DNA from: Squalus acanthias
Taxonomy: Eukaryota
Assembly: GCA_030390025.1 (NCBI GenBank)
Contig: CM059426.1
Coordinates: 60,078,001-60,142,000 of the forward strand
Direction: 5' to 3'
Length of the DNA: 64,000 nucleotides
The position numbers and the translations under genes are program-made. Of this stretch, positions 21,785 through 64,000 are shown piece after piece. The stretch's first letter is position 1; each line of letters opens with the position of its first letter. Below the pieces are notes generated by a model that was given only the letters and a program-made list of their open reading frames with translations, was not told the DNA's origin and made no database searches.

Positions 21785-22955
21785 CGTTTCGATTTTCGAT
21801 TAGGCCTTCTGAACTTAACATTGACTTCAACAATTTCAGACCATAAACACCGCTCCCGTTTTTTCGGACAGCAGGTGCTGATAATGGTTCTGCTGTTGCC
21901 ATTTACACCTCCTCTAGACCCATCTTTCGTTTCTTTACTTGTCCCATTACCATCCCCTTTTGCCTTGTAGCATTATCCCTTTTGTCATTTAATCTCTCCT
22001 GCCTTCCACCCTATCACGCACTTACCCTTTTTTCTTTCCTCCCCCTCCCCCACCTTTTCCCTGTCTCTGTACTTGCTTAAAACATTTTACATCTCTAACT
22101 TTTGCCATTTCTGACAAAAGGTCATTGACCTGAAACGTTGGCCACGATATTTACTGCAGGCGGCAGGAGTTTGGATCGGGAAACCCAGAAGTCTGGGTTC
22201 CCCCGAACATTATGGAGTTTTGACTCCACGACGTGCATGAGTTTTTTTTAATATGTTCCCCGCACAGAAGCCAGCCTGATTGACAGGCTTGGCTCCCTGT
22301 CGGGCGGGGAACGCTGCAGAAAAGGCCGTAGCCCAGGAGCAGGTAGGTTTCCTTGCTCCTCGGGGTAGAGATCGTGGGGTGGGGTGGTTTGGAAGGTTGA
22401 GGGGGTGATTGTGGGGGGTCAGAGAAAGATCGGAGGCAGAGATTGGGGGTCGGGGGTGTAATTGATTGCGGGGGAGTCGGTGATCACAGGGGCAAGGGGG
22501 GGTCCAATCATGGGAAAGGAAGCAGGTTAGCTTGGGGGCCCGGGGGGAAGCACTCCTGCTCCTCCTGGCCCACAAGCAGTGCTGGAAAAGCACTTACTTC
22601 TTCCATGCTGCAGTCCTCACCTCCCTTTAGCTGCCAGGATTTCCGAGGCCCGGGAAACCCAACCAGCCAGTGTTAAAGCTGGAAGGGAGATAAAATATGG
22701 GACACGCAGCCTCATTAAAATATTTAAATGAGCGACCCACCTCCTGGGAGCGGGTTGGTCACCAGGCCCCCCATCCCGCCACTGTTAAAACCGGAAGTGG
22801 GTGGGTTCGATTCGGGATTGAGATTTAAAAATTTTAACATCCTACCGACCCGAACCCACCCATTTTTGGAGGTTAAAATTACCCCAATAGACTCTGTTTC
22901 TCTCTCCACAAATGCTGCCTGACCTGTTGAATATTTCCATCATTTTCTGTTTTAT
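21785..22955 (+). mobile_element. Penelope-like element 3' end (ORF C-terminus, 3' UTR/pLTR with hammerhead), interrupted by MITE 22140-22885
   Basis: FRLG..LNIDFNNFRP* C-terminal motif; CTGACAA-A-AGGTCA-T-TGACCT-GAAA-CG-TT at 22111-22139; resumes ACTCTGTTTCTCTCTCCAC at 22891. Confidence 0.85.
22140..22885. mobile_element. Harbinger-type MITE with asymmetric termini
   Basis: Ends GGCCACGATATTTAC / GGTTAAAATTACCCC; reverse-oriented relative of 32606-33571; interrupts a PLE consensus. Confidence 0.75.
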
Positions 22956-23929
22956 ATACAATAACATTACTGTTCCCAACAACTGTTCCTTGAGAATTCC
23001 ATATATATAGGGAAATTGCACAAATATGATTTTTTTAATGTAGCGACAGTACATGTGTAACCAACAAACAAACTCTTAACCCTTTACATACTGTCTGGAG
23101 TGGCTTTGTAACCCAAACCAAGAAAAGAGCTTTAACATTCACAAATGTGCTTTCTTTTTTCACGTTTTCCATCACTTTTCTGTCTACTGACAAGAAAATA
23201 TCCACACAAGAAGGACCCCAAATCAAGATTCCAGAGGAAGTTATTCAACACAATATGGTATTCGATAGCACCATGACCCCACATGAGCTGCTGTCTTGCC
23301 CATGTTATGTGATTGAAAAGCTAAGCAGATTTCATTTGGGTGTTGCTCTTCTGGTTTGATACAACTAGCCTATCTGCTCTTGTCATTCACAAGTTCATAT
23401 GATGATAAGAACGATTCAAAAAGACCAGAAAGAGGTGGAGGTCCTGGTGAAACAGAAGATAAAGAGAAGTAGAAGAACCAGATGGTAAACTTCCTTCTGA
23501 TATTTCTGAGTGTGATGTAGCAGACAGTGACGGAGCAAGTGAAGCATTTGCTGATAGAACCAGCAGAGAGTTGAATACCACTCCACATTATCAGTGCCAA
23601 GGAATGAGCTGCAAAGGGGAATGTACTTACAGGGCCATGAAGTTTTAGTACTAACATCAAGTCCTTGTGAGACCTTTGACGAAGTATACCAGCACACAAA
23701 TAAAAAAGATAAGCATAATTTTGACTCTGGACATTATATAGAATCCCTGGGCTTCACACTAACTTTATTTCCATCAGCCTAACTCTTCTGGTTCCTGAAG
23801 TAAAGTTAAAAGTTATTCATGTTAAAAATTCATATTTTGTGCCAAAGGTTAAGTGATGAGGGCAAAGATCAGTCACTCCTGGTTTATTTAAAATATCAAA
23901 GAAATACAATTGGTTAAAGCAAACCCAAG

Positions 23930-26589: not shown

Positions 26590-28030
26590 AGAGCATAGGA
26601 ACAGGAGTAGGCCATTCCGCCCCCTTGAGTCTGTACGGCAATTCTATTAGATCATGGCTGATCTGTAACGCAACTCCATTGTCTGCCTTATTTCCATTTC
26701 CATTGATACCCTTACCTAACAGAAATCTATCCTATCTCAGGCTTGAAAATTTCAATTGACCCATTATCCACATCCTTTTGGGGGAGAGAGTTCTAGATTT
26801 CCACTGCCCTTTGTGTGAAAAAGTGCTTCTTGATTTGATTTCTAAATGGTCTGGTTTCAAGATTCTCCCACTAGAGGAAATCATTTCTCTGTATCTATCC
26901 TATTGAATCCATTTATCATTTGCAACATTTTAAATATTTTTTCCTCTTTCTCCACTGTCAAAACGGATACAGAATACTGATTTAACAAGTCTGTCATTTT
27001 CTTATTGTCCAGTATTATCTCACCTCCACCTGTCTGTAATGGGACTACATTCTCCTTCGTAAAATGTGTGACATCGGCTAGGCCACCCGTTAAATACCTC
27101 TCTCGATTTTCGTTACTATTGAAGTCAATGTTTAACAGGTGGCCTAGCTGATATCGCACGTTTTACACTAGCACTCAAAGTCAAAATTACCTCCTATTTC
27201 TCTTAATATATTTTAAAAGACCTTTGCTGTTAACTTTGATATTGCTTGCAAAGTTTTTTTCATATTCCCTATTACAGGAAACTTTTGTTTATCCGGCACC
27301 CAAATATCCGGAATTCTCGCTTAACCGGCAAAAATCATCCTCCGAAAACTCCTCTCAAATAACCGGCAATGTTGCCGAGTTGCAGTCAAGTCTCCGCGAA
27401 CGCCGAGTACTCCGAAAACTCCTCTCAAATAACCGACAATGTTGCCGATCCCGAGTCCGAGTCCGAGTCCGCGAACGCCGATTTAGTCAGCAGGGGTAGT
27501 TTTCAAAAGTACCCAAATACTGTATACTGCACATTTCTTGATTTATTTATTTTTCTTTGTTAAAAATAGCCTCGGTAGATATAACTCTCCGTTATCCGGT
27601 ACTTTCGATAAACCGGCACCACGCCGGTCCCGTCGGTGCCGGTTAATAAAGAGTTTCCTGTACTTTCTTTGTTTCCCTTTGTTGCTTTTTATAGCTCTCC
27701 CAGTCCTATGGATTTCCACATTTCTTTGCATTTGTGTAAGCCTTTTCTTTTAGCTTGATACTGTCTCTTACCTTCTTTGTTGACCATGGTTGCCTAACTA
27801 CACAAGTGGAGCCTTTGCCTTTTAACGATGTGTACTAGTTTGGTATCGTATCAACAAACTCTTTGAATACTTCCCACTGTTTGTCTGTAGGTTAACAGTT
27901 CAGCTCAGTTTAATGTAGTCAATTAATTTCTCTTTCCTTCAAAGTATGCCTCACTTAATTTAAAACCTATCTTTGTGACTCTTCCTGCTCCCTCTCAAAC
28001 TTAATATCAAATTCAATCCTTTTAGGGTCA
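26590..28030 (-). mobile_element. CR1-type LINE, deleted/degenerate, with nested MITEs
   Basis: 3' tail CATAGGAACAGGAGTAGGCCATTC; GEIILDNKKMTDLLNQYSVSVLTVE (CR1 ORF2 linker); continues to ~28030. Confidence 0.75.
27275..27660. mobile_element. pogo/Tigger-type (Tc1/mariner superfamily) MITE
   Basis: TA TSD on both sides; 26-bp TIR CAGGAAACTTTTGTTTATCCGGCACC (22/26 match to the other end); internal 38-bp direct repeat at 27341 and 27411. Confidence 0.88.
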
Positions 28031-30330: not shown

Positions 30331-31009
30331 GATTTCAACAAAGCTCAAAGGAAGCAAAGCATGAACGAATAATGAATTTACAGCTTAAGAGGAATAAGAG
30401 AGGCAGGTTCTGGGGAACAAATACAAGAGAGACAAAAAAGGATATGATAGAGTGAATTTAATAATTTAAGTAGTGTTTCTTACAGGTTGTGCCCTCCAAT
30501 AACAGGTATCTCCTTTTTGTAATTTATTTTCCTGCCTCCATTTTAAGCCCTTTCATGCAATGATGCATTATCCAACCAAGGGGTGGGTAGGGGAACTGCT
30601 CAAAGGTGTCTGGCAATTGTGCTCTTCAAACAGCCGTTAAGGGGTGTGTGGGAGTAGTGTAGGCCGATTTCTCATCTCAACCAGTTGATGTTGAGAACTC
30701 CTCATGTGGGGAATTGTGAACCAAAGAGATCGGAAATATTGTGGGTGGTTTAGAGATTACAGCTTGCTGACAGTGAAAAAATAAAATAAAAACATGAGGC
30801 ATTGACAAAGTTCTATTTATACTGAGAAATCCAGGGAGAGAAAAAAACAACAGATCCCACACTCCAAGCAGGCAATGGAACATGAAGGGAAATTATTTAC
30901 CTTCTATTCATTATAGTGGGCAGAAAATCATAAGCTGTGATTTTCCACGTTGCATTCTTTACAAGCCCTCTCCCTACTTGTAGTGTAAAATGCAGAATTG
31001 TTCCTGGAA

Positions 31010-31200
31010 ACTGCAAATGCTGGAAGTCTGAAATATAAACAGAAAAAGCTGGAAATTCACAGCAAGTCAATATCCATCTGAGAGAGAGAGATAGGTAGGC
31101 TAATGGTTTGGGTTCTTGTATAAATTGTTTCACCTGAGACATTAATCTATCTTTTTCTTTCAGATGATGATCAAGTCTACTTTGCATTTTGTGTATCTGA
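31010..31200. mobile_element. Degenerate fold-back Penelope-like family 2 fragment
   Basis: Minus-strand pLTR end (TGCTGGAAGTCTGAAATATAAACAGAAAAAGCTGGAAA) followed by plus-strand ACCTGAGACATTAATCT..TTTCAGATG. Confidence 0.6.
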
Positions 31201-41779: not shown

Positions 41780-43120
41780 TTTTTTTTGATTCATTCATGG
41801 GATGTGGGCGTCGCTGACAAGGCCAGCATTTATTGCCCATCCCTAATTGCCCTTGAGAAGGTGGTGGTGAGCCGCCTACTTGAACCGCTGCAGTCCATGT
41901 GGTGAAGGTACTCCCACAGTGCTGTTAGGGAGGGAGTTCCAGGATTTTGACCCACTGACTATGAAGGAACAGCGATATACTTCTAAGTCAGGATGGTGTG
42001 TGAGTTGGAGGGGAACTTGGAGGTGGTGGTGTCCCCATGCACCTGCTGCCCTTGTCCCTCTAGGTGGTATAGGTCACGGGTTTGGGAGGTGCTGTCGAAG
42101 AAGCCTTGGCGAGTTACTGCAGTGTATCTTGTAGATGGTACACACTGCAGTCATGGTACGCTGATGTTGGAGGGAGTGAATGCTTAAGGTGGTGGATGGG
42201 GTGCCAATCAAGCGGACTGCTTTGTCCTGGATGGTGTGGAGCTTCTTGAGTGTTGTTGGAGCTGCACTCATCCAGGCAAGTGGAGAGTATTCCATCACAC
42301 TCTTGACTTGTGCCTTGTAGATGGTGGAAAGGCTTTGGGGAGTCAGGAGGTGAGACACTTGCCACAGAATACCCAGCCTCTGAGCAACTCTTGTTGCCAC
42401 AGTATTTATGTAGCTGGTCCAGTTAAGTTTCTGGTCAATGGTGACCCCCAGGATGTTGATCGTGGGGGGTTCGACGATGGTAATGCCATTGAATGTCAAG
42501 GGGCAATGGTTAAACTCTCTCTTGTTGGAGATGATCATTGCCTAGTACTTGTGTGGCACGAGTCTTACTTGCCACTTATCAGCCCAAGCCTGAATATCGT
42601 CCAGGTCTTGCTGCATGCGGGCACACACTTCTCCATTATCGGAGGAGTTGCAAATGAAACTGAGCACTTTGCAATCATCAGCGAACATCCTCACTTCTGA
42701 CCTTATAATGGAGGGAAGGTCATTGATGAAGCATCTGAAAATGGTTGAGCCTAGGACACTGCCCTGAGGAACTCTTGCAGCGATGTCCTGTGGCTGAGTT
42801 GATTGGCCTCCAACAACCACAACTGTCTTCATATGACTCCAGCCAGAATAGAATTTTCCTCCTGATTCTCATTTACTTCAATTTTACTAGGGCTCCTTGA
42901 TGGCACACTCGGTCAAATGCTGCCTTGATGTCAAGGGCAGTCACTCGCACCTCACCTCTGGAATTCAGCTCTTTTGTCCATGTTTGGACCAAGGCTGTAA
43001 TGAGATCTGGAGCTGAGTGGTCTTGGCGGAACCCAAACTGAGCATCGGTGAGCAGGCTATTGGTAAGTAAGTGCTGCTTGACAGCACTGTCGATGACACC
43101 TTCCATCACTTTGCTGATGA
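41780..43120 (-). mobile_element. CR1-group (L2/Crack/Daphne-like) LINE, 3' 1.3 kb
   Basis: QFGFRQDHS..ALDIKAAFDRV / VPQGSVLG..FINDLP..MFADDC / ILGVTIDQKLNW..YKAQVKSVMEYS; tail (reverse) CCCATGAATGAATCAAAAAAAA. Confidence 0.9.
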
Positions 43121-43406
43121 ATGCCTAGGGTTGGATTTTGTCAATGGGTTGGGCTGGGGTCGTGTGAGGTGGAAATCGTGGTCTCCACCTGACTCCAATT
43201 GGAAGTGGGGATGAGAATGAATTTTCCCCTAATTGGGCAATTGATTTCCTGCGTGTGGGAACCCTAGCCCAATTAGTTTTTCCAGTCTGAAAGTCGGGTC
43301 CGATGACATCATCATTGCTGCTGCATTTAAGGTCTGCAAGAAGCCTTGCTTCCTCTGCAGACTGCCAAGCTTTCTGTATTAGCAACCACACGAAAGTAGT
43401 AGCAAA

Positions 43407-45415
43407 ATGAGTTTCAGCAGACCTAAGTCTGCCCCGAGATTCGAGGACGTCGCCCTGAAAGCTTTGATAGAGGGAGCAGGAGCTAACAAAGAGGTGCTCT
43501 TCCCTTCCTCAGGGAAGAAGAAGCCTCCCCAACAGACAAAGGCTGTGTGGCTTCAAGTGGCCCAGGAGGTGTCCTCCTTGGCGCAGATACCCCGGACTTG
43601 GCTTCAGTGTAGGAAGAAGTTCCATGACCTTATACGCACTGGAAAAGTGAGTATGACTTTCCCATCACCCTCAATCTCATCACCATTGCCTCTCCTCTCT
43701 AGCACTCAGCTTTGACAACCTCTTCCTCCACATACCACTTGACACTGACATCCCTGCCCCCTTACCCTCTCTCTGTATGCTCACATTCACCTAACTATTC
43801 GACTATGCAGCCCTCACACTTCCTACCACTGTGTTGCTATGACACAACTTACAACGCACAGGGAGGGCCCTTGGTCTTGCCACCTCACTCCACCTTTGTC
43901 TCCTTCTAAGCATCTATGCTATGGATTCTCTACACTCACTCCTTCATTCTCACTCAAACTCCACTTGTCTCCCTCATTGCAGGAAAAGAGAGCCCACAAT
44001 AAAAGGGAACGAGCGAGGACAGGAGGAGGGCCACCCTCCATAGCCCAGCTCACAGACTTGGGAGGAGGCGGCCCTGCAGCTAGTCAGGGTCGAGGACGAT
44101 GCACAAGTGGGGGATGGACAGACGGGTGCAGCCTGAGCAAGCTGGTGACAGAAGAGTTTTTCATCTCTCTCATTGACATTGCATGAGTCGCTGATAATGA
44201 ATCTGATGCTCTATCAGATTGACTTATGATCATCTGCAATATTCAATGTGCATGTAACCTTGGCCTCACATCTCTGACTCTTTCCTTTACTCCCTGACAG
44301 GACCATCGACAGGCCCCCTCCCCACTGTCCAGGAGGAACATCCGGAACCTCCAGACTGTAACATCTGAGGGCGCAGCGTCAGCAGAATTCAGCGCACCCA
44401 GCACCAGCGCAGACACTCACACCTCGGTGGGATCCTCTGGACATTGAGTAGAGTTGTCACCTGGTGTATCACAGCTCACAACTGAGCATCAGCAGATGGT
44501 GGAGACAGGGACAGCAGTGGAGAGTCCTAGTCGGAGGGCGCAGGACTCTCCCAGCTCGGCTCAGCTGCATGTCGACCCTCTGCCTCTGGGTCCATCCAGA
44601 AGAAGAGCGGTGCTGGAACTCCAGGAAGAGGTGTAGGAGTCTCTGGCAGGTTTTGTCTCCAGGGTCGCTGCGAGTGTGGCGCGAATGGAGGAGTTCCTCG
44701 CTAGCATGAGCAGAGCCTTTGTGGAGGTGTTGGCGCATGAGCGCATCACTACGGAAAGGATGGCAACCTACGTGGAAAGGATGTCTACCTCCATGGTAAG
44801 GCTGACTACCGTAGAGGAGAGGATGGCAACGGTAGAGGAGAGGTTGTCTATGGTAGTGGAGAGGATGGCTACGTCCATGGAGGAGCTTAGTTGCCAGGGT
44901 ATGGAAACCATGGTATTTACTCAGAATAGAATGACATCTCTTGAGGAGCGATGGTCAGCTATTGAGCAATCAAACCAGACCTTCAGGCAAGTCCTCGCCA
45001 GTCGGACTTCCAGTACAGAAACAGGTCCTAATGGCCCCCCTGAAGTGCAGCAAGGTGCTGTCAAGCCACTTGCTAGCTCTGAAGTGTGGCTGACCCATGA
45101 GAGGGATGTTGGTGGCAGACAACAAGGATGTGGGGGCTCCTCTCAAGCACTCACACGACCATGCCACTGCAAAGCCCTCGGTCAGAGCCCCACCAGAGTC
45201 CACACCCAACTGAGATCGGCGTCTCAACCCCTGCTCAGCAGCAGGAGCAGCAGACTGTTGCCGAGCCCTCACAGGTTCGCAACCCCAGAGGACGCCCGCC
45301 AAAGGAGTCGAGACAGGAGCAGCAAGAAAGTGAGCAAGGGGCCTCCACATTTGCTGAAGCCACAGGGGAACCACCACGTAGGAGCACGCGTAAGAGAAAG
45401 ATACTACACAAATAG
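43407..45415 (+). pseudogene. Harbinger Myb/SANT DNA-binding protein, 3 exons (43407-43646, 43983-44144, 44301-45415), disrupted
   Basis: Exon 1 APRFEDVALKALIE..WLQVAQEV..RTWLQCRKKFHDL then AAA|GTGAGT; exon 2 after TTGCAG: EKRAHNKRERARTGGGP (frameshift ~44060); exon 3 after CTGACAG with coiled coil and C-terminal PRRSTRKRK; stops and frameshifts present. Confidence 0.85.
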
Positions 45416-45457
45416 TCACAAGGGTAGTCACTTGAGTGAAATGTTATGTTTATTGTG

Positions 45458-45697
45458 AGAAGTCGCACAACACCAGGTTATAGTCCAACAGTTTTATTTG
45501 AAATCACAAGCTTTCGGAGCTGCTGCCCCTTCATCAGGTGAAGTGAAGGAATACGATTCGTATTCCTTCACTTCACCTGATGAAGGAGCAGCAGCTCCGA
45601 AAGCTTGTGATTTCAAATAAAACTGTTGGACTATAACCTGGTGTTGTGCGACTTCTCACTTTTGTCCACCCCAGTCCAACACCGGCATCTCCGCATC
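45458..45697 (+). mobile_element. Miniature fold-back Penelope-like insertion, copy 2
   Basis: 102-bp inverted arms 45455-45556/45558-45659 (1 mismatch); 38-nt tail; 12-bp TSD ATGTTTATTGTG (45446-45457, 45698-45709). Confidence 0.9.
45573..45610 (+). ncRNA. Minimal type-I hammerhead ribozyme motif (mirror copy on - strand in the left arm)
   Basis: UCAC-CUGAUGA-A-GGAGC(AGCA)GCUCC-GAAA-GC-UU-GUGA: conserved core boxes, 5-bp stem II, 4-bp stem I, palindromic AGCU in place of stem III. Confidence 0.8.
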
Positions 45698-45924
45698 ATG
45701 TTTATTGTGGACAAGCCATCTGTTGTTTCAAGTAAAAAAAAAATCAGATGGCAACTGGTGCCCTTGTAGCGTTTATCATATCGCTGATGGGACTTCCACA
45801 TTGAGGGCTTAGGATGACTTGCACTTGTCAGTATGGTGCTCAGAGTGCTAGGAATCCATTGGTTCTTGGCCATTGTCGAAGCTCTGCTAAGAAGCTGCGA
45901 GTCCGAAATGCTTGATTGGCTAGG

Positions 45925-57765: not shown

Positions 57766-59319
57766 ACCTTTAACATAATAAAGCGTCCCAAGGCGATTCA
57801 CAGGAGTGTTATAAAATGAAATTTGACACGAGCCACATAAGGAGATATTAGGACAGATGATCTAAAGTTTGGTCAAAGAATTTAAGGAGTGTCTTAAAGG
57901 AGAGAGAGGTAGAGGCAGAGAGGTTTTGGGAATTCCAGAGCTTAGGGCCTAGGCAGCTGAAGACACAGCCACCCATGGTAGAGCAATTAAAGTCGGGGAT
58001 GCGCAAGAGGCCAGAATTGGAGCAGCGGAGAGATCTCGGAGGATTGTAGGTCTGGAGGAGGGTACAGAGATAGGGAGGGGTGAGGCCATGAAGGGATTTG
58101 AAGACAAGGATGAGAATTTTAAAATTGAGGTGTTGCCACATTATGGTTCTGAATGAGGATAAACTTTCTCGACAAACCTCAGACCTCTAGTGGGATTTTC
58201 AGCAGCCTAGCAACTAAGAATTGAATCAGCCTTACTTGTGATAGTGGTTTTTTAACAATTACAATTTAAGCTTAAATATAAAAATTAATAAAACCCAAAT
58301 AATTAATTGACATAAAATTATTTACACATTTGTTGCATTAGTAAAGTGGGCAGTGAGGAGCTGAGGAATAACAATTTTATTCCACTGATGAGAAGATAAT
58401 TGTAACACATGAAATAAACTGAATATTCCATTGGTTTCCATTTTGTATTATTTATATTTCAAATGTTTATGCGTTATTTTCCACCAAACTATTTAAAATC
58501 TATTCTTTTCTGGTTCCAGGGTAAATAAAAGTTACCTTTACTTAAATATATATTTAATTGTTTAGGAAAATGACACATGCGGGAAAACGTAAATGACTTT
58601 AACCTTATCATTGATTTAAACAATAGAATGTGTGTGGACTGTCTTGGTAAATTGAGGCTAGGCTGACTGATTAAAGGAGGAGAGCACAGGCCAAGTCAAT
58701 CAATATACCAGTCTACTCTTAGTTTAGCAATTATATTCACAAATTCCATTATTGGTATTCAATCAAACCATAAATAATCTTGTTACGACTTAACTTCTGT
58801 TTTTTTCTATCTGATACTTTCCAGCTATGCCTTCAGTGAATCTATTCTGTGATGATGCCACACCACTTGTATGTATGTTGACGTGCGATGGACAACTTAA
58901 CTTTAACGTAATAAAGGAAAGTCCATGGCCTGGCCTGGATAGTCCAGTGAATGATAATTTGTATATTTCGCAATGTCCATCAGTAAATAAAATGACTGTG
59001 TCCTTTGCGCCAGCACTTGTGGTAATGCCTGGTGTTAATTTGGGGTGTTGGTACACTGGAAAGAGCAGGCTTCCTCTCCACCTAGAAAATAAGTCATTCT
59101 ATCTGCCCTGATTCAATTATAATAGTGAAAAAAATAATTTCCTCAATAGGATAAACTCCAACTGTGCATTTTCAGAACACTCAGAAGGGGATATCAAACA
59201 TATTTTGATGTTTCTATATCTGACCTGAACTTTGACGCAGACTTGGGGATTAAACTCTTCCTGATAATAATTTTAACAAGAAATCAGTGTGAGTACAAGA
59301 AGGGATTTCCCGTTTAGAA

Positions 59320-59593: not shown

Positions 59594-60866
59594 GGGCCGG
59601 AATTTTCCTGGTATCGAGCGTGTGGGTTTGGAGGCAGGTCAGCAGTTATAAGCACGGAAATTGACAGCGCGTCGGGAACCCGCTGTCATCCCGCCGACTT
59701 CCGCATTTAACTCAGGCGCGTTTTGAGGTGCGCCACAGAACTGCTCGGGCGACCTCATTGAGGTCACTAACTGCTGTTTGAGAGACCCTTAACTGCCTTT
59801 TTAACATCAGGTTTTGGCTTTAACGTCCTGCGCACGGGATTTACCTACCTTGGGAACCTCGCCTGTGAAGGGGAGGTGGAAGCTCAGTGGCCATTGTGCG
59901 AGTTCATTAAGTGACAGCTGGAAAAAACACATAAATACTCAGACCTTACACCTGCTTCCTTGCCTAAGGCAATGGCTCTGGCTGACTCCATTTTGTGCAG
60001 AGATTTAGCTTTCAGGAGTTTGCAGATCATTTCTGCAACCTCGGAAGCCACGCTCACCACATTGCTAGTCACTATCACAACATTGAAGGATTGGGCCTCT
60101 GATCTCCACTTTACCTGCCATCTATTAGATCAGCATGGGTGTCGCTTATGCTGTCTCACCTTGGACCTCAGAATCAGACCAACATGAGGCCCAGCACCAA
60201 CAATATCAGCCACACCAGCAGCAGCAGCCACAAGGGCAGCAGCAGCAGTAACCACAACAACAGCCTTCTCCTCAACGACCTGATGCTCCACACGAGAAAG
60301 GGAGTCAGCACAGGGGTGCACCGCGCCGGAGGCGATATTCCCAACACAAGGTATACAGGCAGAGGATGAGCTTCCTGGACATGACTGAACAGCAGTGCTT
60401 CAGGTGGCTCAGGCTATCGCGCCAGGTCATCGCAGATATTTGTAGCTTGCTGGAACAAGACCTGCTGCCCAGAGGACCTGGTGGACATGCCTTACCAGTG
60501 GCTGTCAAAGTCACCACCACCCTCAACTTCTTCGCCTCAGGCTCCTTCCAGGGATCTGCAGCAGACATTTGCAGGATCTCACAGTCGGCCGCCAACAGGT
60601 AACTGATGCCATGTTTCACAAGTCAGCCACTTATATGAACTTTGCCACTGATGAAGCCAGTGTTATTAAGCAGGTGCTCGGTTTTGTGGCTCTGGCTGGC
60701 TTCCCTCAGGTGCAGGGTGCCATCGACTGCACACTTGTGGCCATCAAGGCACCCACATATTACCCAGGAGTGTTTGTGAACTGGAAGGGCTTCCACTCCC
60801 TCAATGTGCAGCTCATCTGCAACTATAAAAAGATCATCATGCATGTGTGCACCAGACTCCCTGGTA
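59594..60866 (+). mobile_element. PIF/Harbinger transposon, transposase-side end, truncated
   Basis: TIR GGGCCGGAATTTTCC matching the 4344 end; transposase 5' half downstream. Confidence 0.88.
60136..60866 (+). pseudogene. Harbinger transposase 5' half (stop + frameshift)
   Basis: MGVAYAVSPW..Q-rich..[40 protein letters not shown] / [24 protein letters not shown]. Confidence 0.9.
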
Positions 60867-61255
60867 AATGTGTATTCAATCCAGACAATATGCAATAATA
60901 CATTTTGGATGTAAGAATAGGGAAAGAAAATATACCTTAAATGGTAATATTTGCAATGGAGTAGAAGAGCAGAGAGACCTTGGTGCATATATACATAGAT
61001 CATTACAGGTAGGAACACGAATAAATAAAGCCATAAAAAAGGGAAACTGATTCCTTGGGTGTAATTTTCAACTTCACTGCCTGGGCAGTTCCCTGGCAGA
61101 GGGGATCGCCTATTGATTTGAAGGGGTTGAAAATTGGGCAACTTCTATAATGGACGGGCGATCTGCTCCACCAGATTACTGCCCAGGGAGTTAAGTTGAA
61201 AATAACTCTGCCACCCACCGTTGGTTTTGCATCTAGAGGCATAGAATACAAAAGC
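60867..61255 (+). mobile_element. CR1-type RT fragment split by MITE
   Basis: IIHFGCKNRERKYTLNG..VEEQRDLGAYIHRSL; resumes ASRGIEYKS. Confidence 0.75.
61057..61208. mobile_element. Small Harbinger-type MITE
   Basis: GGGTGTAATTTTCAACTT / AAGTTGAAAATAACTC; inner CCTGGGCAGT / ACTGCCCAGG; related to 9475. Confidence 0.75.
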
Positions 61256-61257
61256 AA

Positions 61258-64000
61258 GAATATCCTTCCTCAGATAAGGAGACCAAAACTGTGCACAGTA
61301 CTCTAGGTGTGGTCTCACCAAAGCCCTGTACAATTGTAACAAGACTTCCTTACTCTTGTACTCCAACCCCCTTGCAATAAATGCCTTTTGCCTTCCTAAT
61401 TGCTTGCTGTATCTGCACACTAGCTCTCTGTGTTTCCTGTACGAGGATACCTAAATCTCTTTGAACATCAACATATAATAGTTTCTCACCATTTAAAAAA
61501 AATTCTGCTTTTCTGTTCTTCCTACTAAAGTGAATAACCTCACATTTCCCCATATTTTACTCCTTCTGCCACTTTATTGTCCTCTCACTTAACCTGTCTA
61601 TATCCCTTTGCAGTCTCTTTGTGTCCTCCTCACAGCTTACTTTCCCACCTAGCTTTGTATCATCAGCAAACTTGGATACATTACACTCGGTCCCTTCATT
61701 TAAGTCATTAATATAAATTGTGAATAGCTGAGGCCAAAGCACTGATCCTTGTGGCATCCCACTAGTTACAGCCTGCCAACCTGAAAATGACCCATTTATC
61801 CCTACTCTCTGTTTTCTGTCCGTTAAGCAATCCTCTATCCATGCTATTAAATTACTCCCAACCCATGAGCCTTTATCTTGCATAACAACCTTTTATGTGG
61901 CACTTTATCAATGCCTTTTGGAAATCCAAATATACTACATCCACTGGTTCCCATTTGTCTACCCTGCTAGTTACATCCTCAATAAACTCTAATAAATTTG
62001 TTAAACATGATTTCTCTTTCATAAAACCATGTTGACTCTGTCTAATCATATTGGGCCAGAAATTCGGCTTTCTGGCTTCCTGCGGGTGCAAGCATCGCAC
62101 GCGTACTTGCCTACCACGCCTGCAGTTGTGCTTTGGGCCCACGAGGACTTCGGCTCCTGGGCCTCCTCCAGCTACCGGCGCGCAGTACTTGCGTATCCCA
62201 GGGGCGCAGTTAGTTCGAAGCGTCCCCTGGGATCACGTGGGCCATGGAGAGCCAATCCTAACAGGGCATTTTCATTCATAGATTTGACTGGAAGACCTGT
62301 CAAATCTATGAATAGAGATCGGCCCCAAAACCACACTTAAACTTCAAATCTTTTTTTTTTAAATCACATTTTTAAAATAACTATAAGTTACATAAATTAA
62401 CTACTTTAAACAAAAATTTTAATTTTTGAAAAAATTAATTATACTTTTAACGGTGCTAAAAATAAACTTACCTTTCTTTAAAGTATCTAAAAAAGATAAA
62501 CCTGTTGAAAAAATGTTTAAATTGAAATTAATTAACCACTTACCTTGTTAAAAACAGGCCTTGCGCCTCCTTTTTAAAAGTGCAGCTTCTTCATACTTAC
62601 CCTCCCGGAGAAACCTGAAAAAAAACCTGAAGTTCGCTGCATGTGCGCAGCCTCTCCCGCGCACGCGTTCAACTTCTGAACCCCTCCCTTCAGGGGAACG
62701 GAAGTTCCGGTTTCCCGCGCATGCGCAGTGCATGCAGGAAACCGGCACTTCAGGTGGCCTTATGGGTGAGTACACAGCGCGTACTCACCCGTGGAGAGCC
62801 GAATTTCTGGCCCATTATGATTTTCTAAGTGCCCTGTCACCACTTCCTTAATAATGGATTCCAGCATTTTCCTGATAACTGGCCTGTAGTTCCGTTTTCT
62901 CTCTCCCTCCTTTCTTGAATAGTGGGGTTACAGTTGCTACCTTCCAATTCACTGGGACCGATCTTGAATCTGGGGAATTTTGGAAGATCACAACCAATGC
63001 ATCCACCATCTCTGCAGCCACCTCTTTTAGAAGCCTATGATGTAGGCCATCAGGTCCATGGGATTTGTTGGCATTTAGTCCCATTAGTTTCTCAAGTACT
63101 TTTTCTTTACTGATCTTAATTACTTTAAGTTCCTCACTCGCATTAGACCCTTGGTTCTCCATTATATTTGGTATGCTTTTTGTGTCTTCTACTCTGAAGA
63201 CAGATACAAAATATTTGTTTAAAGTCTCTGCCATTTCCTTATTCCCCTTTACAATTTCTCCCGCCTCAGCCTCTAAGGGACCAATGCTTACTTTTGCTGC
63301 TCTCTTTCTTTTTACATACTTGTAGAAGCTTTTACAACCTGTTTTTATATTTCTTGCTAGTTTACTCTCATATTCTATTTTTTCCCTTTTAATCAATTTT
63401 TTGGTCATCTTTTGCTGATTTCTAAAGCTCTCCCAATGCTCAAGCCTACTACTATTCTTATTATAAACATCTTCGTTTAACCTAATACTATCCTTAACTT
63501 CTTTAGTTAGCCACAAATCACTTTTCCCGTGGAGTTTTTATTCTTCAATGGAATGTATATTTGTTGAGAATTTTGAAATATTTCTTTCAATGTTTGCCAC
63601 TGCTTATCTACCGTCATACCTTTTAATCTAATTTCCCAATCTACCTTAGCCAACTCGCCCATCATACCTATGCAATTGACTTTATTTAAGTTTAAGATTC
63701 TAGTTTTGGATTTTAGTATTTCACTCTCAATCCCAATGTGAAATTCTATCATCTTCTGATCACTCTTCCCCAGAAGATCTTTTACTACAAGATTACTAAT
63801 TAACACAATACAAGATCTAAAATAGCCTGTCCCCTGGTTGGTTCCAAGATGTATTATTCTAGGAAACTGTCTTGAATGCATTCCATGAACTTGTTGTCCA
63901 GACTACCTTTGCCAATTTGATTTGCCCAGTCTATATGAAGATTAAAGTCCCCCACAATTATTGAATTACCTTTGTTACAAGCTCCTATTATTTGTTGATT
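61258..64000 (-). mobile_element. CR1-type LINE ORF2 (EN-RT), degenerate, runs off window
   Basis: [88 protein letters not shown]. Confidence 0.95.
62053..62813. mobile_element. Young Harbinger-type MITE (761 bp)
   Basis: Perfect 17-bp TIR GGGCCAGAAATTCGGCT; TSD ATT (62050-62052, 62814-62816); interrupts CR1 RT. Confidence 0.93.

Follow-up and report, generated by a model that had tools for sequence, protein, structure and literature searches.

Three short hairpin insertions in a chromosome of Squalus acanthias as probable dead-end products of a Penelope-like element

Three short DNA hairpins in a 64,000-nt stretch of Squalus acanthias contig CM059426.1 (assembly GCA_030390025.1, positions 60,078,001 to 60,142,000; hereafter the window) are real insertions. 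Copies A, B and C are independent of each other, 199-264 bp in length and flanked by their own TSDs (15, 12 and 13 bp, respectively), and every copy (3/3) consists of a head-to-head palindrome with a tail of 39-41 nt on one side only. Judged by the cis features in their sequence, they are very likely extremely shortened leftovers of Penelope-like elements (PLEs). In the model that explains them best, to which we assign a probability of about 0.7, the three inserts are dead-end, extremely 5'-truncated products of an endonuclease-bearing PLE, for which both nicks were primed and a snap-back of cDNA provided the joining. The copies are thus very likely the smallest form of the PLE inverted-end structure and not a new class of element. 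Template positions are numbered from hammerhead A9 as +1, and the ranges given for ends span the 2-3 nt over which TSD and template show microhomology. Direct observations are the anatomy, the TSDs, the microhomologies, the positions of the ends and the hammerhead pattern; the parts of each copy are as follows.

305-319, left TSD of copy A, 15 bp; its final 2 nt match the tail end (microhomology)
318-356, minus strand (sense on minus strand), tail of copy A, unpaired; ends at +113 to +115
357-421, minus strand, long arm of copy A, with helix II 3' strand, GAAA, cleavage site and downstream region; no CUGANGA core
422-426, loop of copy A, 5 nt; centre +9, where the hammerhead has its helix II loop
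427-491, plus strand, short arm of copy A; ends at +73 to +76, final 3 nt common to the right TSD
489-503, right TSD of copy A, 15 bp; exact repeat of 305-319
45446-45457, left TSD of copy B, 12 bp; final 3 nt common to the short arm
45455-45556, minus strand, short arm of copy B, 102 nt; ends at +74 to +77
45557, palindrome axis of copy B; position -25
45558-45659, plus strand, long arm of copy B
45660-45700, plus strand, tail of copy B, unpaired; ends at +115 to +118 or later, final ATG common to the right TSD
45698-45709, right TSD of copy B, 12 bp; exact repeat of 45446-45457
57515-57527, left TSD of copy C, 13 bp; final 2 nt common to the short arm
57526-57622, minus strand, short arm of copy C, 97 nt; ends at +77 to +79, hammerhead C3 at 57610
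57623-57629, loop of copy C, 7 nt; axis 57626, position -21
57630-57726, plus strand, long arm of copy C; hammerhead C3 57642, A9 57648, predicted cleavage after 57671
57727-57765, plus strand, tail of copy C, unpaired; ends in ATG at +118
57766-57778, right TSD of copy C, 13 bp; exact repeat of 57515-57527

An earlier note on this DNA, made from the letters alone, had already described three independent TSD-flanked insertions, and this description stands. All TSDs are perfect, variable in length and AT-rich (73-77% vs 57% in the window), and an exact pair of 12-mers is expected by chance only ~2e-4 times per 50x50 search box. When the insert of copy A and one TSD are removed, the site becomes colinear with the paralog at 26665-26825, with no insert-sized gap; the same treatment of copy C gives colinearity with the paralogs at 53040-53160 and 16660-16772. 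No paralog spanning the junction of copy B was found within the window. BLAST of the 64 kb returned copies A, B and C only, all three of them hairpins, and they hold the top three scores among the 8 hairpins detected in the window. It is very improbable that they are artefacts of assembly or amplification made of chimeric inverted reads. The window does hold a gap of 181 N (9057-9237), and palindromes are error-prone in assemblies, but the individual perfect TSDs and the two colinear empty sites speak against this explanation, as do the single transition that distinguishes the arms of B and likewise of C, and a geometry found at three sites and in either orientation.

Divergence between the host repeats and their own paralogs amounts to 20-30%. 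We take the host of copy A to be a CR1 and that of copy C to be an L2, names based on RT motifs in linked fragments. The inserts are younger than their hosts, because the TSDs are perfect and just 2/264 arm pairs are mismatched while the host repeats have diverged to this extent. LINE-type reverse-transcriptase fragments are also seen at 53911-54336, 61560-61892 and 42569-42829 (all on the minus strand); by their motifs, they are presumably L2-like and CR1-like. Overall, the repeats of the window look like those of a cartilaginous fish. As for copy B, which had been placed in a Harbinger element, it indeed has a Myb/SANT ORF on one side and a convergent DDE_Tnp_4 ORF on the other, an arrangement known from Harbinger, but the termini of such an element were not found in the window.

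43383-43712, plus strand, Harbinger-like Myb/SANT ORF; part of the convergent pair at 43383-46920
45928-46920, minus strand, Harbinger-like DDE_Tnp_4 ORF; open for 331 aa

An inverted pair at 41781/47331 was considered as the Harbinger terminal repeat and rejected on inspection. Transposase fragments related to these two ORFs occur near 3665-3908 and 60102-60895.

All six arms, read in one sense, align to a single template. Pairing is complete in copy A (65/65, 5-nt loop) and nearly so in copy B (101/102 around a 1-nt axis, which folds as a 3-nt loop) and copy C (96/97 with a 7-nt loop, or 98/100 with a 1-nt axis). The near-perfect palindromes of the earlier note are confirmed. The sole arm mismatches, one transition each, lie in the helix II region at 45527/45587 (B) and 57597/57655 (C); the former makes a G-U pair A-U, and the latter is compatible with CpG decay. 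The centres are located at +9 (A), -25 (B) and -21 (C). Their sequences differ, and B and C also differ upstream of the hammerhead core; the claim that every copy has a different centre is therefore right for sequence, although B and C are only 4 nt apart. The outer edge of the short arm had been regarded as one and the same point. Instead, the ends form a cluster from +73 to +79, in which the ranges of A (+73 to +76) and C (+77 to +79) do not overlap. The tail is one-sided and unpaired as claimed, and its length between microhomology-inclusive ends is 39-41 nt and not ~38 nt.

Over 101 shared nt, A and C show 2 differences, B and C 6, and B and A 8. Five between-copy differences fall within the arms, and at 5/5 of these sites both arms of each copy agree, just as had been noticed before. 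Later gene conversion could also account for such within-copy identity. The microhomology of 2-3 nt, reported earlier for most junctions, was found at 5/5 testable junctions, the sixth (the outer end of C) being untestable, and it is always located at the 3' end that would act as a primer (chance ~1.5e-6). In these copies A9 is followed by AAG, all three frames are closed before the tail, and no reading frame is open from the hammerhead through the tail. The outer RT start coincides with an ATG (57763-57765 in C, 45698-45700 in B); one might guess that this terminal ATG was the start codon of the missing partner ORF. By eye, the sense strand looks intron-like over 68-70 nt at 45607-45674 and 57672-57741 (both plus strand): it has GT exactly where the ribozyme would cleave, a CTCA(C/T) resembling a branch point where the inner RT start lies, and further on a stretch of pyrimidines and, within the tail, CAG. 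Introns are known to be kept by PLEs.

TSDs of 12-15 bp, different centres and the one-sided tail together support the earlier proposal that the hairpins were built during integration. They also make it hardly credible that a transposase copied them whole as MITEs or foldback DNA transposons. The copies are short, non-coding and palindromic like MITEs, and B sits between Harbinger-like ORFs, but TSDs of 12, 13 and 15 bp are not of fixed size, the interior is not uniform since the centres differ, the inverted repeat is non-terminal on the tail side, and a hammerhead is present.

A descriptor of the minimal hammerhead gave four matches in 64 kb, one in every arm of copies B and C; 30 block-shuffled windows averaged 0.03 matches each. 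In copy B, the two motifs are placed as follows.

45504-45541, minus strand, minimal type I hammerhead in the short arm of copy B; C3 at 45537
45573-45610, plus strand, minimal type I hammerhead in the long arm of copy B; C3 45577, A9 45583, predicted cleavage after 45606

In these hammerheads A9 is followed by an additional base, G10.1-C11.1 is present, 15.2/16.2 is palindromic and helix I measures 3-4 bp; 34/36 cells of their alignment are paired, helix II contains a G-U pair in 3/4 of the complete arms, and cleavage is predicted after +24. Copy A begins inside helix II and retains the 3' half without the core, so that the name of a hammerhead-bearing family suits B and C completely and A in part. 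The motif fits the published consensus of PLE hammerheads, and its exact sequence was not found among the published PLE hammerhead motifs compared (PMC4209133, accessible part). One helix I pair is altered on both sides between B and C, which is not significant (85/500 shuffles score as high, with four related rows). The monomer hammerhead folds no better than shuffled sequences (z -0.2 to -1.3), nor is single-arm RNA folding significant. In A, B and C alike, the predicted folds place the inner start in an apical loop of 11 nt, which is not counted as evidence (z -1.0 to -1.5). A search of the 64 kb against Rfam gave 0 matches at the gathering score, thus no hammerhead; searches by E-value gave 15 and 22 sub-threshold matches, nearly all to generic (microRNA-type) hairpins and none to a hammerhead family.

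The window also contains fragments of a second, older hammerhead family with a sequence unlike that of A, B and C.

6240-6345, plus strand, second-family fragment
22105-22139, plus strand, second-family fragment
22891-22964, plus strand, second-family fragment, solo copy without tail
31005-31069, minus strand, second-family fragment
54472-54621, second-family inverted pair

Degraded minimal hammerheads of the same build are recognizable by eye at 6242-6275 and 22110-22140, where the descriptor missed them through core changes. One solo copy of this family has a tail of ~25 nt and one (22891-22964) has none. The inverted pair at 54472-54621 carries a tail on one arm and has unequal arms, with a 30-bp stem and a 46-nt loop; the left arm apparently stops in helix II, and the junction of the pair possibly holds 4 nt of inverted microhomology. 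No TSDs were found at 6235, 22885 or 54470, where the copies are decayed. Judging from the two families, several outcomes appear to exist, of which the symmetric hairpin is one. Pyrimidine-tract/CAG sites are seen in the second family as well. A purine-rich 15-nt tandem repeat (5 copies, 54632-54724) directly follows the inverted pair.

The PLE origin proposed earlier is supported by four features: the minimal type I hammerhead of the pLTR, found by descriptor in B and C (its cleavage is only predicted) and as a half in A; a tail of 39-41 nt, where PLEs have 30-40 nt on one end only; a 5'-truncated, inverted unit that meets the direct one head-to-head in 3/3 copies, at a junction that is often palindromic in PLEs; and TSDs of variable length (15/12/13 bp) at AT-rich targets (73-77% AT). 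The earlier note had also suggested looking for an RT+GIY-YIG partner that ends in the same tail, and none was found in the window: Pfam searches of 51/58 ORFs (at least 110 aa) gave no PLE match and no GIY-YIG, the scan covering all but 7/58 ORFs, one of which spans the N gap. Two ORFs matched RVT_1, and both look LINE-like by their motifs. When the open tail frame of copy C, lengthened by 17 flanking codons, served as a (weak) protein query, 3 candidates came back and none of them scored. The 24-nt arm motif had 0 matches in GTDB contigs, as expected for a prokaryotic set.

The hairpins had previously been suggested to be an independently amplifying, ribozyme-carrying "hairpin SINE", that is, a non-autonomous unit in which hairpin masters, or a short RNA of hammerhead and tail, are mobilised in trans by a PLE protein. 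We consider this quite unlikely. It gains from the fact that 3/3 copies in the window are hairpins without an ORF (one-sided 95% lower bound on their share ~37%) and without a frame open from hammerhead to tail, and also from the literature, in which non-autonomous PLE derivatives exist (PMC8557442; bioRxiv 10.64898/2026.07.22.740005) and rotifer pLTRs are sufficient for mobilisation in trans (PMC3846280). However, no two copies have a centre in common, B and C differ upstream of the core, A is devoid of the ribozyme core, and the copies end at the outer RT start. They reach +118 at most, whereas Poseidon of the anole needs RNA to +172, ~55 nt more (PMC11167929). If the whole hairpin were transcribed, its RNA would form a long duplex hiding the ribozyme and the start sites; as DNA, the hairpins have folding energies of -80 to -127 kcal/mol. 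A tRNA-, 7SL- or 5S-derived head and a single master, the traits of SINEs, are lacking, as there is no Rfam match at the gathering score and no shared centre. The copies resemble non-LTR retrozymes, which are non-coding, carry a type I hammerhead and have a proposed origin from PLE pLTRs. Retrozymes, though, are head-to-tail tandems giving circular RNA, and A, B and C are single head-to-head units (PMC7229834; bioRxiv 10.64898/2026.07.22.740005). Such single units go uncounted in a tandem-based retrozyme pipeline (bioRxiv 10.64898/2026.07.22.740005).

The closest parallel is found in a biochemical system. Purified Poseidon of the anole (Anolis carolinensis) nicks and extends both strands in vitro, and its reverse transcription starts internally at two sites, one on each side of the tail, with +111 to +118 as the main one (PMC11167929). 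This numbering follows from the printed template, where the A of AUG corresponds to A9 as counted by eye, and the main start then matches the tail ends of +113 to +118 in the present copies. The RNA in Fig. S1B of that paper spans ~+30 to +125. This span suggests, but does not prove, an upstream position of the second start, near the inner cluster of A, B and C. Further likenesses to anole Poseidon are a minimal hammerhead of the same build, a tail between two starts, AT-rich targets and an uncleaved template; ribozyme cleavage is not required in vitro, and a dimer is predicted (PMC11167929). Unlike A, B and C, anole Poseidon has an ORF that starts at A9 and a coding tail. In the accessible text, priming is said to take place at a site "not homologous" to the target, microhomology of the primer is not mentioned, and hairpin products without an ORF are not described (PMC11167929).

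Genomic copies of other PLEs show the same asymmetry. In Pen2a of the rotifer Adineta vaga, the direct pLTR exceeds the inverted one by 37 bp, a tail of 31 bp is optional and the TSDs are 8-10 bp, shorter than the 12-15 bp found here; palindromes are frequent at inverted junctions of rotifer PLEs and were attributed to self-priming in 2013 (PMC3846280). An inverted 5'-truncated copy and a one-sided tail of 30-40 bp are regarded as typical of PLEs, with their origin unresolved (PMC8557442). Thus A, B and C share with EN+ Penelope elements (A. vaga Pen2a and D. virilis Penelope) an inverted copy shorter by 30-40 bp, a tail on one end, a palindromic junction and a TSD, but the EN+ Penelope copies enclose an ORF or captured DNA and nothing lies between the arms here (PMC3846280, PMC2377424, PMC8557442). 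Thousands of dispersed minimal hammerheads derive from truncated PLEs, with opposite-strand pairs 100-700 bp apart in Schistosoma; the pairs are closer in the present copies (C3 to C3, 40 bp in B and 32 bp in C), and the published pairs are, in the accessible text, not resolved into TSD-flanked hairpins with a tail (PMC4209133). The hairpin geometry is therefore not new, because two-start priming (PMC11167929), in essence the earlier note's idea of two defined RNA positions, and palindromic junctions attributed to self-priming (PMC3846280) have both been published.

In the preferred model, a PLE protein, predicted to be a dimer, would bind unprocessed RNA near the hammerhead/tail region and nick AT-rich DNA on both strands, 12-15 bp apart. 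The 3'-OH of each nick would pair with 2-3 nt of the RNA and prime reverse transcription, one at the outer start (+113 to +118) and the other at the inner start (+73 to +79), and the RNA between the two starts would give rise to the one-sided tail. Both cDNAs would pass the uncleaved hammerhead and stop after just 65-140 nt, within helix II in A and ~20-25 nt upstream of A9 in B and C, the latter possibly at the 5' end of the RNA. One cDNA 3' end would then fold back, or find a short inverted match in the other end, and be extended; the new strand would pair with the second cDNA, and repair would seal the head-to-head palindrome between the TSDs. Priming at both nicks fits the polarity of the junctions, because at each end the 3' terminus of the duplicated target runs on directly into cDNA and matches the RNA over its final 2-3 bases. 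The centre requires a further step, since the two cDNAs have the same sense and would be unable to anneal over their full length; a fold-back is the simplest such step. All 6 arms cross the cleavage site (+24), and therefore the template was uncleaved or religated. We infer that the partner of this family behaves like the PLE studied in vitro, and that the stop, fold-back and joining of the cDNA took place in this way; we also infer that the three copies cannot move again.

The earlier note had offered snap-back synthesis and priming at two defined RNA positions as alternatives. The two need not exclude each other, since one can explain the centre and the other the ends. Snap-back following a single priming appears unlikely. 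There, the cDNA from the outer start would copy itself, halt or be cut ~40 nt short, and join the other nick by microhomology, which accounts for the near-perfect symmetry in 3/3 copies and for the agreement of arms at 5/5 diagnostic sites. Self-priming has already been proposed for the palindromic junctions of PLEs (PMC3846280), and the tail was formerly attributed to endonuclease resolution of an intermediate (PMC8557442). However, this course requires a fixed stop at +73 to +79 that the sequence does not explain, and the in vitro work found an RT start on either side of the tail and extension of both strands (PMC11167929). Furthermore, the solo copy of the second family at 22891-22964 also ends without a tail.

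Within the two-nick model, the origin of the centres can be narrowed to some extent. The centre of A lies on helix II; of the 16 candidate snap-back hairpins that the cDNA of the B long arm offers, the one at this axis is among the top two in strength (-4.1 kcal/mol). The cDNA of the C long arm has no Watson-Crick hairpin at the axis of A, A is closer to C in sequence, and the 5-nt loop of A has no exact match in the loop of B or C; the argument for a helix II snap-back in A is weakened. Whether a single cDNA folded back or two ends annealed, the resulting sequence would be the same, so that the window does not tell these routes apart. The centres of B and C, 4 nt apart despite different upstream sequences, hint (n = 2) at a shared stop such as an RNA 5' end. 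A bolder reading, to which we give low but not negligible credence, is that the template is a short leader and that the centres at -25 and -21 mark the 5' end of the transcript ~100 nt upstream of the inner start. Both RT subunits of a dimer would run off, making the arms equal, and the hairpin without an ORF would be the main product, possibly templated by a dedicated hammerhead RNA of a non-autonomous kind, and would scatter sources of perfect dsRNA (65-100 bp) through the genome. The long arm of C starts at TCAGT, an initiator-like motif; this single degenerate match fits the leader reading.

Inversions during TPRT, by priming from the second nick or by fold-back of cDNA, are also known from other elements. 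Snap-back of cDNA, often after full-length synthesis, has been seen in R2 insertions (PMC11371274), and the present copies are similar in kind to these and to L1 twin priming. Unlike in L1, both starts are fixed here and the arms cover the same template. In L1 twin priming, the position of the second priming varies, and what becomes inverted does not repeat the direct part.

How PLEs form inverted ends and complete the second strand is listed as unresolved (PMC11167929, PMC8557442). If the preferred model is true, each copy of 200-260 bp would record both nicks, both RT starts, the primer pairing and the junction. Extrapolated from the 3 copies in 64 kb, their number would be many thousands in a genome, and a genome-wide table could test the in vitro two-start model in vivo and tell RNA-structure snap-back from 5'-end run-off. 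Such copies are open to mis-annotation as MITEs or microRNA precursors, as the sub-threshold scores with microRNA models illustrate. A literature search, with most subscription journals outside its scope, found no paper devoted to PLE hairpins without an ORF, and a paper on killifish Neptune contained nothing pertinent. Apart from the PLE families, the window holds a perfect 28-bp hairpin with a 6-nt loop at 9812-9873, unrelated to them and situated in a GC-rich stretch (9780-10360), and weaker hairpins at 9474-9599, 19862-19959 and 27059-27166.
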